Source of the DNA: an uncultured delta proteobacterium
GTDB lineage: Bacteria > Myxococcota_A > Polyangia > Palsa-1104
DNA length: 64,000 bases
Reading direction: 5' to 3'
Assembly: GCA_963785725.1 (NCBI GenBank)
Contig: CAWAWS010000039.1
Coordinates: 576,001-640,000 of the forward strand
In this document: positions 47,463-53,256 of the stretch, in pieces
Layout: every line of letters begins with the position of its first letter
How positions within the stretch are numbered: position 1 is the first letter of the stretch
Notes under the pieces: model-generated
Database searches by the model: none
Told to the model about the DNA's origin: nothing
The model's input: only the letters and a program-made list of their open reading frames with translations
Position numbers and translations under genes: made by a program

Positions 47463-48005
47463 TCAGCTGTCGCTGTCGAGCTCGCCGTCCCAGTAGACGG
47501 CGTTGCGCAGCCAATTGCGCCACGACTCCGGCATCTCGCGCGAGAACTGCAGCCCGGGCACGACGTTGGGCAGGCTCGTCGGCCGCGCCGGCGTCGAGCG
47601 CAGCTGCAGGCCCGCCTGACGCGGCGTGCGCCCGGCCTTGCGCTGATTGCACGGCACGCAGGCGACGACGATGTTGTCCCACGCCGTCCGTCCGCCGTGC
47701 ACGCGCGGAATGACGTGATCGTAGGTGAACTCGTCGCGCCGCACGTGCGCGCCGCAGTATTGGCAGCGCCCGCGGTCGCGCGCATAGACGTTCTGCCGCG
47801 AGAACTTGATGCCCCGCGGCCGCGGCGTCGCCTTCAACAGCCGCACGATCGACGGCATGCGCACGCGCCAATTGGGCGTGTGAATATACCGGTCGGGGTA
47901 CTCGTCGATGACCTCCACCGCGCGCCCGAGAATCCACAAAATGGCGCGCTCCCACGGCACGCGCCCGATCGGTTGATATCCCACGTTCAACACCAACGTC
48001 TGCAC
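47463..48005 (-). CDS. HNH endonuclease (McrA-like)
   Basis: RDRGRCQYCG, DHVIP..HGG and WDNIV.AC..CN.RK motifs; strong RBS (AAAGGAG) plus GTG. Confidence 0.92.
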   Translation of the reverse strand: MQTLVLNVGYQPIGRVPWERAILWILGRAVEVIDEYPDRYIHTPNWRVRMPSIVRLLKATPRPRGIKFSRQNVYARDRGRCQYCGAHVRRDEFTYDHVIPRVHGGRTAWDNIVVACVPCNQRKAGRTPRQAGLQLRSTPARPTSLPNVVPGLQFSREMPESWRNWLRNAVYWDGELDSDS

Positions 48006-48044: not shown

Positions 48045-48180
48045 TGGTGCCTCGAGCCGGGGTTCGAACCCGGCGACACCCTGAGTGTGATAACGAGCGA
48101 TCTCAACGGCCCACGCGCGGTGGACAAGGAAGGCGAATGCTCGAGCTCGATCAGGCGCTCTACCGCTGAGCTATCGAGGC
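48045..48180 (-). ncRNA. yrlA: circularly permuted YrlA-type Y RNA/tRNA hybrid ending in CCA
   Basis: Acceptor GCCUCGA/UCGAGGC-ACCA; D arm GCUC-AGCGGUA-GAGC; T arm GCCGGG-UUCGAAC-CCCGGC; stem CCUGA/UCAGG encloses ~66 nt carrying Ro-binding halves UUGUCCAC and GUGGGCCG plus UUAUC; near Ro60. Confidence 0.8.
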
Positions 48181-48189
48181 GAAAATAAT

Positions 48190-48414
48190 GCGGACGAGTG
48201 AATGAATTGGATAAGGGTTAAAGGCCTAGTACCTCACCACAGTGATTTCGACCGGTCCGCGCCGGTCTTCGACGTCCATGGCTTCGTTGCTCCTCCTCGA
48301 AATACAGACAGTATTCCTTCGTCGTCGCGCCTCGCCCTGAACGCCGAATCCTCGCCGGGGACCCATCAAAATCACTGTGGCGAGGTACTAGATGAGCCAA
48401 CGCGATCGGCCCGC
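48190..48414 (-). ncRNA. small Y RNA-like gene (copy 3), interrupted by a MITE
   Basis: After removing the MITE: GCGGGCCGAU-CGCGUUGG-CUCAUC...CCAAUUC-AUUCAC-UCGUCCGC, homologous to copies 1 and 2. Confidence 0.65.
48226..48391. mobile_element. MITE/REP-like element, 166 bp
   Basis: TIR CTAGTACCTC(A)CCACAGTGATTT...AAATCACTGTGG(C)GAGGTACTAG; near-identical inverted copy at 52043-52208. Confidence 0.88.
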
Positions 48415-48435
48415 CGTCGCAACGGAGCACAAAAT

Positions 48436-48518
48436 GCCGCGGACAAGTAATTGAGTTGGAAGCGCGAGTTTCCTCGCATCTTTTCTCGGAAGATAATCCA
48501 ACTCGGTCGGCCCGCGGC
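48436..48518 (-). ncRNA. small Y RNA-like gene (copy 2)
   Basis: GCCGCGGGCCGA...UUGUCCGCGGC lower stem with bulged C; upper stem GAGUUGGA/UCCAACUC; UUAUC; GCGAG-GAAA-CUCGC hairpin. Confidence 0.8.
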
Positions 48519-48541
48519 GGAGCTATCGAGACCCAATGAAG

Positions 48542-48618
48542 TGCGGACAAGTGAGTGAGCTGGAAAGCGAGTTTCCTCGCCATCTTTCCTAAAGATAATC
48601 CAGCTCGATCGGCCCGCA
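48542..48618 (-). ncRNA. small Y RNA-like gene (copy 1)
   Basis: UGCGGGCCGA...UUGUCCGCA; upper stem GAGCUGGA/UCCAGCUC (compensatory change versus copy 2); UUAUC; GAAA hairpin. Confidence 0.8.
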
Positions 48619-48621
48619 TCG

Positions 48622-48707
48622 AGCCTCTCGTCGGAGTCGAACCGACTTAGGGCAGGTCGCCCTCGCCGATACGAAACGGCTGCCTTCACCGGAAGGCTGC
48701 GAGAGGC
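48622..48707 (-). tRNA. atypical tRNA-like RNA (Thr-like acceptor, long variable arm, irregular anticodon loop containing CGU)
   Basis: Acceptor GCCUCUC/GAGAGGC; D arm GCCUUC/GAAGGC; variable hairpin AGGGC/GCCCU; T arm GUCGG-UUCGACU-CCGAC. Confidence 0.6.
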
Positions 48708-48733: not shown

Positions 48734-50374
48734 TTACTGCAGCCCGGAATCGAGCTGCGTCTGGGAGAAGTCGTTGATGACCGCGGGCGTGGCCGTGTCG
48801 AACCCGACCACGTCGAGCATTCCACCGTCGGACGGATCGGCGATGGTGAAGCCGTTCGACACCATGGCCACGACGACGAGCTTGGCGGCGATGCCCATGC
48901 GCTGCCGATAATCGCGCAACGCCTGCACCGGATGGACCGCGCCGCACCACGTCTCGGAGTCGGTGTAGATGACGAACGTGTCGACGGCGATCTTGCGATC
49001 GCGCGCCCACACCATCGGCAACGCGCAGTCGGTCGCGCCGAACGGCAAGCCGCTGACGCGCTTCAGCGCGTGGTCGAGTCGCCAGCGCGGCGAGATGTCG
49101 AGCTCGCTCACCGCCGGCGATGACGGCCGAAACAGCCCGTGATCGCCGGTGAAGGCCACGAACGCGTGCTGCGGCTCCGTCGCCGCCGTGACCAGCGCCA
49201 TCGCCGCCGAGGCCAGGCGCGGCGACAGACCGGGCACGCCGGCGACACTCCCCATGGCCATCGACGCCGACACGTCGAGCGCCAACAGCGTCCGCTTGCC
49301 CGTCGGCTCGACCTGCGCGAACGCCGCATGAAACGCGTCGTTCAGCGCGTCGACGATCGCCGGCACCGGCTGCCACACGTGCTGCCCGCGCACGCCGTGA
49401 CCGCTCGCGTACGTCTGCAGCGCCGACAAGATCGCGATCGGATGCACGCGCGCCGCCCGCAGCTGCCCGCCGTAGCGCAGCCGCGTCACCACCATCCGCG
49501 TCGTCGCGCCCAGCGGCGCCAGCAGCCCGACGCGCGTCATCGTCGCCAAGTTGCGCAGCATCGCCGTCAGCGGCATGTGCTCCATGAGCGCCTCCCACAC
49601 GCGCGCATCCGTCAGCCATTGCGTCGGAATGCACTCGCGCGGCAGGTTGTGGGTGCGCACCAGCCGCACGACCTCGCGCACGTCCGTCGCCCGCTTGGCC
49701 GCTTCCACGGCCGCGACGAGCGCCAAATCCTCCGGCACCTTGTCCGGCAGCTCGCCGCGCACGACCCAGCGGTACAGCATGTCGTGCTCGGCCGTCGCCG
49801 CCTTCGGATGCGCCAGCCGCAGCAGATCGCGCGTCGCCCAACCATCGCGCGACGGGTACTTCACGAGCTGATAGGCCAACGCCGATGCCGGCTTGTCGTT
49901 GAACCAGCGCTGCATCGCCGAGCGCGTGCCGCGACCCCAACCGCCGAGCGCGTCGACGTACGACGCGAAGTGCATGAGCTGCGTGCCGGTGCGGCAGATC
50001 GCCGGCATCGCCGCCAACGCGCGCCGCCGCGTGTCGAAGTCGCCGAGCTTGGCCGCCATCGCCAGCGCGAAGATCGCCGGGTCGTTCTTGGGCGCGCGGC
50101 CCGCCTCCGACACGGCGCGCACGCGGGCGATGACCCGCGCGCCGTCGAGCGTCAAGCAACGCTCGACGGCCTCGGCGTTCTCGCGCGTCAGCACGCGCTC
50201 GCGAACGTAGAAGCTGCCGCCTTCGGAGCCGAGGATCAGAAAGCGCTCGAGGCGCGCCCAATCGTCGACCGCCCACCCGTAACCGCCCGCCGAATTCGGC
50301 GTCTGCGTCGCGGAGATGGCCTGGTTCTGCGGCGTCTCCTTACGCGAGAATAGCTTTCCATAATCAATCGTCAC
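48734..50374 (-). CDS. rsr: Ro60/TROVE domain RNA-binding protein (Rsr)
   Basis: NSAGGY, RFLILGSEGG.FY, GGWGR, YQLVKY..RDGW..RDLLRL.HP, MP.TAMLRNL, ALDVSASM (vWA), YTDSETW and DVVGFD motifs; AGGAGG RBS plus GTG. Confidence 0.96.
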   Translation of the reverse strand: MTIDYGKLFSRKETPQNQAISATQTPNSAGGYGWAVDDWARLERFLILGSEGGSFYVRERVLTRENAEAVERCLTLDGARVIARVRAVSEAGRAPKNDPAIFALAMAAKLGDFDTRRRALAAMPAICRTGTQLMHFASYVDALGGWGRGTRSAMQRWFNDKPASALAYQLVKYPSRDGWATRDLLRLAHPKAATAEHDMLYRWVVRGELPDKVPEDLALVAAVEAAKRATDVREVVRLVRTHNLPRECIPTQWLTDARVWEALMEHMPLTAMLRNLATMTRVGLLAPLGATTRMVVTRLRYGGQLRAARVHPIAILSALQTYASGHGVRGQHVWQPVPAIVDALNDAFHAAFAQVEPTGKRTLLALDVSASMAMGSVAGVPGLSPRLASAAMALVTAATEPQHAFVAFTGDHGLFRPSSPAVSELDISPRWRLDHALKRVSGLPFGATDCALPMVWARDRKIAVDTFVIYTDSETWCGAVHPVQALRDYRQRMGIAAKLVVVAMVSNGFTIADPSDGGMLDVVGFDTATPAVINDFSQTQLDSGLQ

Positions 50375-50425: not shown

Positions 50426-50498
50426 GCGCCCCGGCAGGCGTCGAGCCAGCACTGCATCCTTCGCAGGGATGTGACCTATCCGTTAGTCGGACGGGAGC
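50426..50498 (-). tRNA. degenerate tRNA-Arg(GCG)
   Basis: Anticodon arm CAUCC-CUGCGAA-GGAUG; D arm GACU..GGUC; imperfect acceptor; T loop CUCGACG. Confidence 0.55.
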
Positions 50499-50698
50499 TT
50501 CACGATGACGGGCGTGCCCGGCTTCACCGCCGAGGTCGCGGCGTGCTCGTAAAAGCGCAGGCCGCCCCAGCGACGGCTCAGGTTGCCTTTGAGCCAGCGC
50601 AGCCACTGACGCGCGCAGGCGCCGCACAATCGCGTTCGTTCCGAATGTCGATGACCGCTGGCTTCGTGATACGGCGTTCCGCAGGCTGAGCAGCGCAT
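50483..50698 (-). CDS. 71-aa putative zinc-binding protein (CSAC...CGAC)
   Basis: AAGGAGG RBS plus ATG; two CxxC motifs; basic/aromatic C-terminal half. Confidence 0.7.
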   Translation of the reverse strand: MRCSACGTPYHEASGHRHSERTRLCGACARQWLRWLKGNLSRRWGGLRFYEHAATSAVKPGTPVIVKLPSD

Positions 50699-50783
50699 CT
50701 GCGCCTCCTTTCGTGAGCGTTGATTTCAATTGCGAATCAATCGGCTGAATATCGAATCGAATAGCGGTGATTCGATTCGGCGG

Positions 50784-50856
50784 TGCCCCAGCGAGGAGTC
50801 GAACCTCGTTCTCCGGTGCTTCAGACCGGCGCGCGGACCGCATACGCTACCGGGGC
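50784..50856 (-). tRNA. tRNA-Phe(GAA), divergent
   Basis: Acceptor GCCCCGG/CUGGGGC-A; anticodon arm CCGGU-CUGAAGC-ACCGG; T loop UUCGACU. Confidence 0.82.
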
Positions 50857-50858
50857 AT

Positions 50859-50931
50859 TGGCGCCTGCGACGGGCGTCGAACCGGTTCACTCGATCGACA
50901 ATCGAGCCGCCGGCCGTTGGCGTCCGCAAGC
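50859..50931 (-). tRNA. tRNA-Asp(GTC), divergent, CCA encoded
   Basis: Acceptor GCUUGCG/CGCAGGC-G-CCA; anticodon arm CUCGA-UUGUCGA-UCGAG. Confidence 0.75.
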
Positions 50932-50933
50932 AA

Positions 50934-51009
50934 TGGGGTGAATAGGGGGATTCGAACCCACCGTCTCGCGGTCCACGGCCGCGCGCTCTGCCATTGAGCG
51001 ATATTCACC
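50934..51009 (-). tRNA. tRNA-His(GTG), CCA encoded
   Basis: G-1:C73 pair (GGUGAAUA/UAUUCACC-CCA); anticodon arm CGCGG-CCGUGGA-CCGCG. Confidence 0.85.
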
Positions 51010-51022
51010 ATGAAATCATTCG

Positions 51023-51096
51023 TCGGCATGGCGGGCTTCGATCCCGCGACCTCTCGCTCCCGAAACGAGCGCTCTACCAGGCTGAGCTACACGCCG
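51023..51096 (-). tRNA. tRNA-Pro(CGG)
   Basis: Acceptor CGGCGUG/CAUGCCG-A; canonical D arm AGCUCAGCCUGGUAGAGC; loop UUCGGGA; T loop AUCGAAG. Confidence 0.88.
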
Positions 51097-51140
51097 AACA
51101 TTCCCGAAATACGATTCAAAACCTCGGTTAATAAAGCGAT

Positions 51141-51217
51141 TGGCGTACCCCCAAAGGAATCGAGCTTGCTTCGTCCGCTTAACAAGCGGTCGCCATCACC
51201 AGGCCGGCGCGGGGTAC
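51141..51217 (-). tRNA. tRNA-Asn(GTT), degenerate T arm (possible pseudo-tRNA), CCA encoded
   Basis: Acceptor GUACCCC/GGGGUAC-G-CCA; loop UUGUUAA; poorly paired T stem. Confidence 0.6.
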
Positions 51218-51238
51218 GAAGCGCGTGGTTACGCGCGG

Positions 51239-51311
51239 TGCGCGCCGTGGGAATCGAACCCACCTAAAGACGGATTAAGAATCCGCTGCCTCTCCAGTCG
51301 GCTTGGCGCGC
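51239..51311 (-). tRNA. tRNA-Lys(CTT), divergent
   Basis: Acceptor GCGCGCC/GGCGCGC-A; anticodon arm GCGGA-UUCUUAA-UCCGU; T arm GUGGG-UUCGAUU-CCCAC. Confidence 0.82.
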
Positions 51312-51384
51312 AGGTGCTCTCGTCGAAACGAGAGCGTTTTCATCACGTCGACTATTCGGTTTTCAATCGTTCCCGACATCAGCG

Positions 51385-51456
51385 AGCGGTCGGCGGGAAT
51401 CGAACCCGCCACTCCGGCCTGGCGAGCCGGCATGTCTCCGACAACACTTCGACCGC
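51385..51456 (-). tRNA. tRNA-Gly(GCC), divergent
   Basis: Acceptor GCGGUCG/CGACCGC-U73; anticodon arm CCGGC-UCGCCAG-GCCGG; T arm GCGGG-UUCGAUU-CCCGC. Confidence 0.82.
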
Positions 51457-51534
51457 GAGACGCACGACCGCCTTCGCCGTTTCGGATATCGAATCCGAAA
51501 GACGTGAATGAATAACGGTCCAGCGTGGTGAAAC

Positions 51535-51579
51535 CCCGAAACGGCGAAGGGCCGGAAACCTCTCGGTTTGCCGGCCCTT
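51535..51579 (-). terminator. attenuator terminator hairpin upstream of the tRNA array
   Basis: AAGGGCCGG(C)AAACC-GAGA-GGUUUCCGGCCCUU followed by a weak U-containing tail. Confidence 0.65.
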
Positions 51580-51609
51580 TAGTCGATCCCGAAACTACCC
51601 GGATTCGGA

Positions 51610-51759
51610 CTAGGGGCCGTTGGCCTTACCCTCGCGGCGCGCCGGATTGGTGGCGCAATGACCACCAAACTCGAGCACATACAGATCGCCGCCGAGGCGG
51701 GCGCTCGTCGAGCGCGGCGTCAGTCGGTCGTTCCGTAATGGTTTGATTTCGCGCGACAT
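51610..51759 (-). CDS. putative 49-aa leader peptide (MSREIKPLRN...GKANGP)
   Basis: AGGA RBS; lies between the promoter and the terminator; its last codons can pair with the terminator 5' arm. Confidence 0.6.
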   Translation of the reverse strand: MSREIKPLRNDRLTPRSTSARLGGDLYVLEFGGHCATNPARREGKANGP

Positions 51760-51778
51760 GAGAGTTCCTGTGTCCTTG

Positions 51779-51820
51779 GTGCTAAAGGCTTCGCGATTCG
51801 AAGTCAAGGAAAAATAAAAA
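51779..51820 (-). promoter_or_regulatory. sigma70-like promoter of the RNA island
   Basis: TTGACT-17 bp-TAGCAC with an upstream T-rich UP-like tract (TTTTTATTTTT) in otherwise GC-rich DNA. Confidence 0.65.
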
Positions 51821-51995
51821 ACAACTCATTTCGTTTCGCCGTCTACGTATATCCAAACCATTTTCGTCATTGGTGAATACTCGATTCAATCGCGCGCTAT
51901 ATTTTCTATTTTGCGGGCGATTGAAGGCGGCGCGCGCCGCAGTCGAGCGCCAATGCGCGGGTGATGTTCGGCATACGAGGCGGGGGATGGCCATG

Positions 51996-52030
51996 AAAAA
52001 GCCGCCGGGCCGACGTGGCCGGGCGGCTTT
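51996..52030. terminator. intrinsic terminator (possibly bidirectional)
   Basis: AAAAAGCCGCC.GGCC-loop-GGCC.GGCGGCTTT; T5 tail on the minus strand, downstream of the AKR gene. Confidence 0.75.
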
Positions 52031-52042
52031 CGCGATCGGGAA

Positions 52043-52208
52043 AAAGTACCTCGCCCCCGTGATTTTGATGGGTCCCCGGCGAGGATTCGGCGTTCAGGGC
52101 AAGGCGCGACGACGAAGGAATACTGTCTGTATTTCGAGAAGGAGCAACGAAGCCATGGACGTCGAAGACCGGCGCGGACCCGTCGAAATCACTGTGGCGA
52201 GGTACTAG
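52043..52208. mobile_element. MITE/REP-like element (inverted copy of 48226-48391)
   Basis: About 8 mismatches over 166 bp versus the reverse complement of 48226-48391; left CTAG eroded. Confidence 0.88.
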
Positions 52209-52217
52209 AGGCGACGG

Positions 52218-53256
52218 TTACTTCGTGATGACGCGCGGCTCGCGGTTCTGCCAGTCGACCATCCAGCCCGGGTACTCGGCCGGCAGCGCGCTGGCGTCGT
52301 CGAGCTGCTTGAGCTGCTCGGGCGACAGCTTCACTTCCGTCGCGGCGAGGTTGTCTGCAGCTGCTCCTTGTTCTTCGCGCCGATGATGACGCTGGTGACG
52401 AACGGCCGCGTCAGCTGCCACGCCAGCGCGACGCGCGCGACCGAGATGTTCGTCGCCTTGGCCACCGCGCGCAGCGCCGCCAGCACCTTCGGCAGGCGCT
52501 CGCGATTGACCGGCGGGAAATCGAACGACGCGCGGCGCGCGCCCGTCGGACCGTCGGCGGCCGGCTTGTCGGGGTCGAACTTGCCCGACAAGAGGCCGCC
52601 GGCGAGCGGGCTCCACGGCAGGATCGCGATCGCCTGGTCCTTGGCGAGCGGCACGATCTCGCGCTCGATGTCGCGGCCGGCGATCGAGTAGTACATCTGC
52701 GCGCTCTGGAAGCGGCGCGAGGCCGTGCGCGTCGGCGTAGGCGAGCGCCTTCATCGCCAGCCACGCCGCGCAGGTTGGAGAAGCCGACGTAGCGGGCCTT
52801 GCCGCGCCGCACGACGTCGTCGAGCGCGCGCACCGTCTCCTCGATCGGCGTCTCCGGGTCGAAGCCGTGGATCTGGTAGAGGTCGACGTGATCGAGCCCG
52901 AGCCGGCGCAGGCTGCCGTCGATGCTCGCCAGGATGTGCGCGCGCGAGAGGCCGACCTGGTTCGGTCCCGGGCCCGAGCGACCGCGGACCTTGGTGGCGA
53001 CGACGACCTGCTCGCGCGGGCGCTTGAGCGACGCGAGCGCGCCGCCGAGCAGCGTCTCGGACTCGCCCTCGGAGTAGACGTCGGCGGTGTCGATGAAGTT
53101 GACGCCGGCGTCGAAGGCGCCGCCGACGATGGTCTCGACCTCCTTCTCGCCGAGCTTGCCGACGACCTCCCAGAAGCCTTTGCCGCCGAACGTCATCGTG
53201 CCGAGGCACAGCTCCGAGACGTAGAGGCCGGTCTTGCCGAGAACATGAAATTTCAT
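52218..53256 (-). pseudogene. aldo/keto reductase with three frameshifts
   Basis: [17 protein letters not shown] and HVDLYQIH motifs; homology switches frame near 52770, 52716 and 52358. Confidence 0.8.

Follow-up and report, generated by a model that had tools for sequence, protein, structure and literature searches.

A cluster of tRNA genes on the minus strand of the window (the whole analysed stretch of 64,000 nucleotides) is preceded by a short open reading frame and a strong hairpin. This raises the question whether translation of a leader peptide decides over transcription of the genes behind it. As a rule, long tRNA arrays stay silent, and a cyanobacterial repressor is the control found for them in print. 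We find that the leader ORF together with two mutually exclusive helices probably forms a ribosome-controlled transcription attenuator, which would keep an operon of spare tRNAs, Ro60 and an HNH endonuclease off while translation is healthy. From anatomy, folding and comparison with relatives we give this reading a probability of roughly three in four.

Anatomy of the leader and its operon

The promoter, the 49-codon ORF and the GNRA-capped hairpin before the first tRNA gene, which the initial annotation had named, were all located (Table 1), and a recount of the peptide agreed with its 18 of 20 residue kinds. We infer a transcription start at about position 51772. Promoter and terminator are both present, but the promoter matches 8 of 12 consensus bases and fails the consensus scan, as does the terminator with its strong stem and only 3 U in 8 tail bases. 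TTGAC-N17-TA lies upstream of 20 of the 34 distinct leaders of the family described below. The weak tail type recurs in a paralogue on C3 of the same genome and in several metagenomic leaders; the tails of most relatives hold 5-7 U. The middle hairpin was seen in 14 of 14 folded leaders, the sequences being unrelated.

Table 1. Features of the leader and its operon in window coordinates.
Feature	Position	Strand	Details and basis
Terminator-like hairpin with U run, closes the upstream transcript and insulates the leader	51996..52030	-	terminator scan
Promoter-like TTGACT-N17-TAGCAC	51779..51807	-	-35 at 51807-51802, -10 at 51784-51779
Shine-Dalgarno-like AGGA	51766..51769	-	6 nt 5' of ATG; sequence
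Leader ORF, 49 codons	51610..51759	-	ATG 51759, TAG 51612-51610; 18 residue kinds, without Gln and Trp
Antiterminator 5' strand	51608..51625	-	overlaps final codons and stop; folding, alignment
Middle hairpin	51580..51612	-	closes the antiterminator helix; folding
Terminator hairpin, GAGA loop	51547..51579	-	-24.1 kcal/mol, z -4.9; 5' arm is the antiterminator 3' strand
Weak U tail	51539..51548	-	3 U in first 8 bases, UUU at +8 to +10; sequence
15-nt perfect complement of 51550-51536 (stem base and tail)	51471..51485	-	sequence
tRNA cluster Gly(GCC), Lys(CUU), Asn(GUU), Pro(CGG), His(GUG), Asp(GUC), Phe(GAA)	50782..51456	-	tRNA search
Ro60/Rsr (TROVE and vWA)	48734..50374	-	Pfam domains
tRNA-Sec-like cloverleaf, long variable arm, UCG in anticodon loop	48622..48708	-	44.6 bits, gathering score 47
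Two tandem Y-RNA-like units of ~100 nt, 3' of Ro60	48435..48640	-	repeats, folds
HNH endonuclease gene	47463..48005	-	domain match

Between the end of the terminator hairpin and the start of tRNA-Gly (51456) lie 90 nt. The 15-nt complement in this interval may hold the transcript in its read-through form or be a signal for processing, and a long-range helix is predicted just 5' of tRNA-Gly. Against Pfam the leader ORF gave no match; against Rfam the leader gave nothing at gathering score, with chance matches only at E<=10, and no cis-regulatory model that would indicate a riboswitch or T-box matched at gathering score. An AT-rich stretch with repeated GAAT/ATTC words lies 5' of the -35 box (51810-51900, minus strand) and likewise in L021, L022, L023 and L120; it is possibly an operator adding control of initiation.

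The cluster comprises 7-9 tRNA-like genes in total. The Asn and Asp tRNAs were detected at relaxed score only, and for Gly, Lys, Asn, Pro, His and Phe, six of the seven, the genome has further copies outside arrays. The tRNA-Sec-like cloverleaf presumably resembles allo-tRNAs. No Rfam model matched the Y-RNA-like units. Their 5' motif is GNCGA-like and may be compared with the Y RNA features in the consulted part of PMC4201824. The HNH gene is the probable end of the operon. A tRNA-shaped gene at 48045-48180 (minus strand) carries an insert of ~60 nt in the anticodon arm with both halves of the Y-RNA-like stem motif and may be a tRNA-ordered Y RNA. Between tRNA-Phe and Ro60 there is a 71-codon ORF with two CxxC pairs (50483-50698, minus strand), for which zinc-ribbon matches were weak only. 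Upstream, an aldo/keto reductase gene (52218-53256, minus strand) is split over frames, as is the second EF-Tu gene of the genome (L337:1880-2671); these are either assembly indels or pseudogenes.

Inverted repeats of 164 nt flanking the locus were considered as the ends of an element and rejected: they belong to a dispersed MITE-like element with terminal inverted repeats of ~39 nt and CTAG ends, found at 48226-48389 and 52045-52208 among 13 places in the genome, one of them within the C3 tRNA array. Besides the leader in the window the genome holds two further ones. The C3 paralogue precedes an array of 20 tRNAs that comes with Ro60 and RtcB and has dps as a neighbour; together with its relatives (20-27 tRNAs) it shows the long supernumerary tRNA array and the HNH/RtcB/Dps neighbours that define L-arrays, whereas the cluster in the window has only its 7-9 tRNA-like genes. 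The third leader, with 14 residue kinds, precedes the second EF-Tu gene.

Folding of the proposed switch

The ORF end had been proposed to be complementary to GACUA and the 5' arm of the terminator, such that the two structures exclude each other. Folding of both states agrees. In a transcript ending in the terminator loop the ORF end folds onto the 5' arm (-29.8 kcal/mol) and the terminator is excluded; the ORF end pairs with GACUA and GGGCCG, with a small internal loop in the helix. At full length the terminator state reaches -42.1 kcal/mol compared to -29.8 kcal/mol for the antiterminator, and it is the more stable one in 12 of 14 leaders in equilibrium folding. Since the terminator wins at equilibrium, the choice of the switch must be kinetic. 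The choice between the states of the trp attenuator is likewise kinetic.

We then folded the leader of the window under constraint, assuming a ribosome footprint of 15 nt behind and 9 nt ahead of the A-site codon. Without a ribosome the antiterminator held 7.1 of 8 core arm bases, and with a ribosome stalled at least 8 codons 5' of the stop 6.4-7.8 bases were held. This number dropped to 2.9 for a ribosome at -5 codons and to 0 at the stop. The proposed masking of the antiterminator by a ribosome at the stop codon is thus reproduced. Read-through upon stalling anywhere upstream, as initially claimed, is predicted for stalls at least 8 codons before the stop but not within the last ~5 codons, and constrained folding predicts it for an untranslated leader as well. 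A conserved pause hairpin in the middle of the ORF was unsupported (mean z -0.95 over 24 leaders, -0.8 in the window).

Taken by itself, the copy in the window is not clearly beyond chance in its ORF, composition and antiterminator fold. An ATG-led open frame reaching its stop occurred in 7.8% of shuffles (P 0.08), 18 of 20 residue kinds have a P of 0.15-0.26, and the antiterminator (z -2.05) was equalled by 10 of 200 shuffles. It is the homologues that carry the case beyond chance.

A family of leaders before tRNA arrays

The arrays of four relatives, found via tRNA likeness, all showed the leader layout, one of them with two leaders in tandem. A search pattern built from the leaders of these relatives was blind to downstream content. 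In genomes it gave 21 matches; among the matches listed, 5 were followed by tRNA arrays, 2 of these being repeats of leaders from which it had been built. The metagenomic search returned 88 loci; a same-strand tRNA lies within 400 nt in 32 of them, and at least two tRNAs in 28. The metagenomic arrays behind the leaders mostly begin with Trp-Thr-Gly-Tyr-Lys.

In total 46 leaders were gathered: 14 genomic ones, 26 of the 32 metagenomic ones (five cut by contig ends were left out, as was L200, a tRNA-followed locus without ATG-led frame), L163, L178 and L185 as additions, and 3 from model or tRNA-likeness searches. Deduplication at 80% left 34 distinct leaders, 33 before tRNA clusters and 1 before the second EF-Tu gene. 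As start codon we took the ATG that follows the promoter match most closely or the earliest ATG of the open frame; five starts were set by hand. Shorter leaders without tRNAs behind them (L121, L136, L139, L147, L150, L183, L203) also matched the pattern and were not counted. Most leaders were found by patterns or models that require a paired core and TAG, and relatives are not independent of each other. Genome records with members of the family bear the names Polyangia, Myxococcota, Myxococcales or Deltaproteobacteria.

Other searches were less productive. In viral contigs the strict pattern gave a single match, found after the composition result below; its 51 codons encode all 20 residues, and the array behind it begins in the same way. 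A loose viral pattern gave mostly chance matches. Whole-array BLAST against 401 genomes of the phylum (best 2 candidates per genome) mostly returned single tRNAs. Model R2 matched in 5 of 151 genomes of the class (best 25 candidates each), one match being an ordinary tRNA terminator, and these numbers give no frequency.

In the main subfamily the ORF length is kept at about 46-54 codons. For the 24 leaders of at most 55 codons the frame is stop-free in all 24, compared to 4-13 of 24 in the other frames. Several side observations concern the wider set. Leaders of 69-76 codons (L024:6490-6560, L138, L134 and the G038 loci) are without TTGAC, and some share an AAACTT..CCGAA motif that is perhaps an ECF-sigma promoter. 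Two attenuators in tandem before one operon are seen in L025 (G015), L195, L150 and L183. RtcA is divergent from a leader in L332:885-1925 (G445), an intact EF-Tu gene lies within the tRNA array of L329:417-1682 (G453), and L027 (G150:C34) holds a run of tRNA-like genes with a common inserted sequence in the anticodon arm.

Conservation of the proposed switch pairing

Covariation in homologous leaders, which had been named as a check, was found as compensatory changes. In an alignment of 14 leaders 85% of the antiterminator cells are paired, with 10 double changes, a number reached by 1 of 500 shuffles; controls with a slid register paired in at most 54% of the cells. The number of pairs showing a double change was not significant (102 of 500 shuffles), and tests of this kind are inflated by relatedness. 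For the terminator, 100% of the cells are paired.

In nascent folds the ORF end paired with 7 or more bases of the terminator arm in 32 of 34 leaders compared to 3 of 88 ordinary gene-end terminators of the genome, a result that is partly circular as the searches demanded a paired core. This count replaced an earlier duplex-energy control, in which the hairpin was missed in 4 of 14 leaders (including that of the window) and 3 of 10 lay within the control range. Non-circular cases are G645 and G453, which were found via tRNA likeness. They have a promoter, a frame of 60 or 65 codons, a middle hairpin and a U-tailed terminator, and they build the switch from different complementary sequences, with 8 and 11 arm bases held. 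Two of the four clusters found independently (G580 = L330, G670 = L331) have a frame of 34 or 36 codons and no such terminator. Among the 36 codons of the G670 leader 9 are for Ser and 1 for Trp, and the tRNAs behind it are Ser-Ser-Trp; a C-rich repeat follows the leader, and control is perhaps Rho-dependent.

In a soil metatranscriptome one 242-nt contig (depth 2.3) covers 51529-51764 with 9 differences and no gaps, i.e. 96% identity. Its 8 listed substitutions all lie in codons 9-36 and none in the switch; 6 change the residue and 2 give Gln. The contig extends at least 12 nt beyond the predicted 3' end, and contigs cannot reveal ends. The contig demonstrates that a close relative has kept the frame intact and the switch unaltered; it is not proof of transcription, as library DNA is possible. 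RNA run X1 gave no cover of the tRNAs of this strain, which proves nothing on transcription.

Amino-acid composition of the leaders

The initial annotation had read the 18 residue kinds in the window as the mark of a broad sensor. This composition by itself lies within chance (see above), and the support comes strongly from the family. All 20 amino acids are encoded by 14 of the 24 leaders of at most 55 codons and at least 19 by 19 of the 24. By comparison, each of the five other frames gave 0 of 24, protein windows of the genome 0.84% of 16,705 and position-preserving shuffles 0.69 of 24, such that 0.2-0.7 leaders are expected overall. An all-20 leader is present in 9 of 13 clusters at 40% identity and in 3 of 6 at 35%. 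Among the longer leaders (>55 codons) only 1 of 10 has all 20, three of the ten belonging to G038. Since more than half of the relatives of similar size encode all 20, the family leader is likely a general test of translation. With 18 kinds against 20 in the C3 paralogue the leader of the window is a reduced member of this family.

The composition is kept rather than the sequence: the all-20 leaders are mostly only 14-38% identical to each other, and their rare residues are scattered. Each has exactly one Trp, 6 to 49 codons 5' of the stop. Close pairs relocate a sole residue instead of losing it (His in L148/L204, Trp in L153/L202). Ala makes up 12.0% of the leaders and 13.5% of host proteins. 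A run of control codons for one or few amino acids was found in none of the leaders.

In G038 the tRNAs are split over three small clusters, and in each the leader is enriched for the amino acids that the cluster's own tRNAs carry. The Tyr/Lys/His/Arg leader has 24 such codons where 13.4 are expected (p 0.002), the Gly/Gln/Ala/Leu leader 37 where 22 are expected (p 0.0001) and the Asn/Glu leader 8 where 4.5 are expected (p 0.08). These leaders are multivalent without runs, and their match with the tRNAs suggests that what they sense is tRNA supply. We also tried to match the residues missing from the leader in the window with missing tRNAs. Trp and Gln tRNAs are indeed absent from the cluster, but so are many others, and the comparison was uninformative.

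Proposed mechanism and alternative explanations

From the observed anatomy, conservation, covariation and composition bias we infer the following course of translation, termination and induction, with a choice set by kinetics. A ribosome that keeps pace would, once in the last ~5 codons, mask the antiterminator strand, such that the terminator forms and transcription stops near 51540. Upon an earlier stall, a lag or no loading, pairing of the ORF end with the terminator 5' arm would come first, and RNA polymerase would continue into the tRNAs. In leaders with all amino acids, the switch would be tripped when almost any tRNA is scarce, damaged or cut, and likewise by ribosome-targeting antibiotics. 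The array behind the copy in the window is a shortened one, and this leader would be expected not to respond to Trp or Gln.

The main rival accepts the family as attenuators but takes the copy in the window as partly decayed, such that it leaks or switches poorly, and the cluster as a degenerating duplicate of the larger C3 array. Its 18 residue kinds against 20 in the paralogue, the weak tail, the bulged antiterminator with its z of -2.05 and the seven tRNAs, two of them low-scoring and with a MITE within the cluster, fit such decay. Yet the identical tail type occurs in the intact paralogue and in other arrays, folding still switches cleanly (7.1 versus 0.0 of 8 arm bases), and the 96% identical relative retains the frame with its listed substitutions outside the switch. 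We regard decay as unlikely. Far less probable is that the hairpins act as a fixed terminator or direct the processing of the tRNA precursor, perhaps together with the 15-nt complement 51485-51471, and that the ORF is incidental. While the greater stability of the terminator state, a window ORF within chance and the long-range helix just 5' of tRNA-Gly would suit it, this leaves the stop-free frames, the all-20 bias and the conserved pairing of the ORF end unexplained.

Two further explanations place the function in the peptide. It could be an arrest peptide for one ligand or drug, or the sensed event could be slow termination at the frequent Gly-Pro-stop end; the loose motifs AAYL, DW and GP-stop do recur in the peptide alignment. 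We consider this improbable, given that the all-20 leaders share so little identity with a sole Trp anywhere from -6 to -49, that the peptide ends vary (GP, GS, FS, PG) along with the RNA pairing, and that 6 of the 8 substitutions in the close relative alter the residue. That the ORF encodes a small protein with a function in trans, the RNA layout being a by-product, is hardly credible: the constant length in the main subfamily would be in agreement with it, but there is no Pfam match, and composition is conserved where sequence is not. We therefore retain the attenuator as the preferred reading.

Comparison with known systems

In the trpL, hisL, leuL and pheL leaders, stalling of the ribosome favours an antiterminator over an intrinsic terminator. 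The present leaders are predicted to behave alike, but they differ from them in having no single-codon run, in an antiterminator strand that overlaps the stop codon itself and in tRNA as the output. They also differ in that no protector hairpin is predicted, and for this reason read-through is expected when there is no translation.

The contrast initially drawn with the single-amino-acid his, trp and leu attenuators stands with regard to the one-codon run, but a broad uORF sensor is already known. According to the consulted part of PMC10274678, efficient translation of the whiB7/wblC uORF of Actinobacteria leads to the terminator, and stalling or loss of the start codon to the antiterminator; the composition of the uORF decides which starvation is sensed, and the M. 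smegmatis uORF contains all residues but Cys. The WblC regulon includes, as the part of PMC7157823 consulted states, six tRNA genes and tuf3 (a second EF-Tu). In the leader family, too, the ORF end would form an antiterminator that excludes a downstream terminator, read-through is predicted when it is untranslated, and tRNAs and a second EF-Tu lie behind it. Whereas the whiB7 uORF gates a transcription factor, the present family would gate tRNA arrays directly, with no whiB7 downstream. The whiB7 uORFs are Ala-rich with varying coverage, unlike the leaders here, which show no Ala bias, are biased to all 20 and come from another phylum. The family is not a member of the whiB7-type attenuators; the likeness is one of layout and logic.

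tRNA L-arrays are induced when translation is impaired (translational stress), according to the main text of PMC8421152. The supernumerary arrays of the leader family resemble them, with HNH, rtcB and dpsA as neighbours. The Anabaena trn operon is controlled through promoter repeats and the repressor TrcR (PMC8421152; see also PMC10272220), in contrast to the leader ORF and RNA switch proposed for the present family. In the main text of PMC8421152 the terms attenuat-, leader, uORF and terminator do not occur. A search of titles and abstract openings, with few subscription papers among them, found no literature on tRNA arrays attenuated by a leader, nor any on leaders that hold all 20 amino acids.

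The cargo of Ro60, Y-RNA-like units and RtcB/RtcA is shared with the Salmonella rsr-yrlBA-rtcBA operon. The latter is under RtcR, a sigma-54 activator, and responds to tRNA damage; there the activator does the sensing, here it would be the leader ORF.

Implications

The leader family is real and conserved. Its uORF-mediated attenuation logic is already known from whiB7, and the gating of tRNA arrays would be a new variation. If the attenuator reading is true, it would constitute a protein-free feedback in which decoding capacity directly sets the supply of tRNAs and tRNA repair.

The bias to all 20 amino acids is a selection signature on composition, not on sequence. It may reflect a checksum: selection would keep one codon per amino acid in a frame of ~50 codons and thereby tie a backup tRNA set and repair enzymes to the decoding of each amino acid, and when an array splits, each piece would retune its leader to its own tRNAs. 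We see this proposal as evenly poised between right and wrong. It makes a sharp prediction, namely that removal of a sole codon loses one input. If true, the leader would be a direct alarm for attack by an anticodon nuclease or toxin on any tRNA, and a cassette of ~270 nt could report, in laboratory strains, on translation inhibitors and tRNA-cutting toxins.
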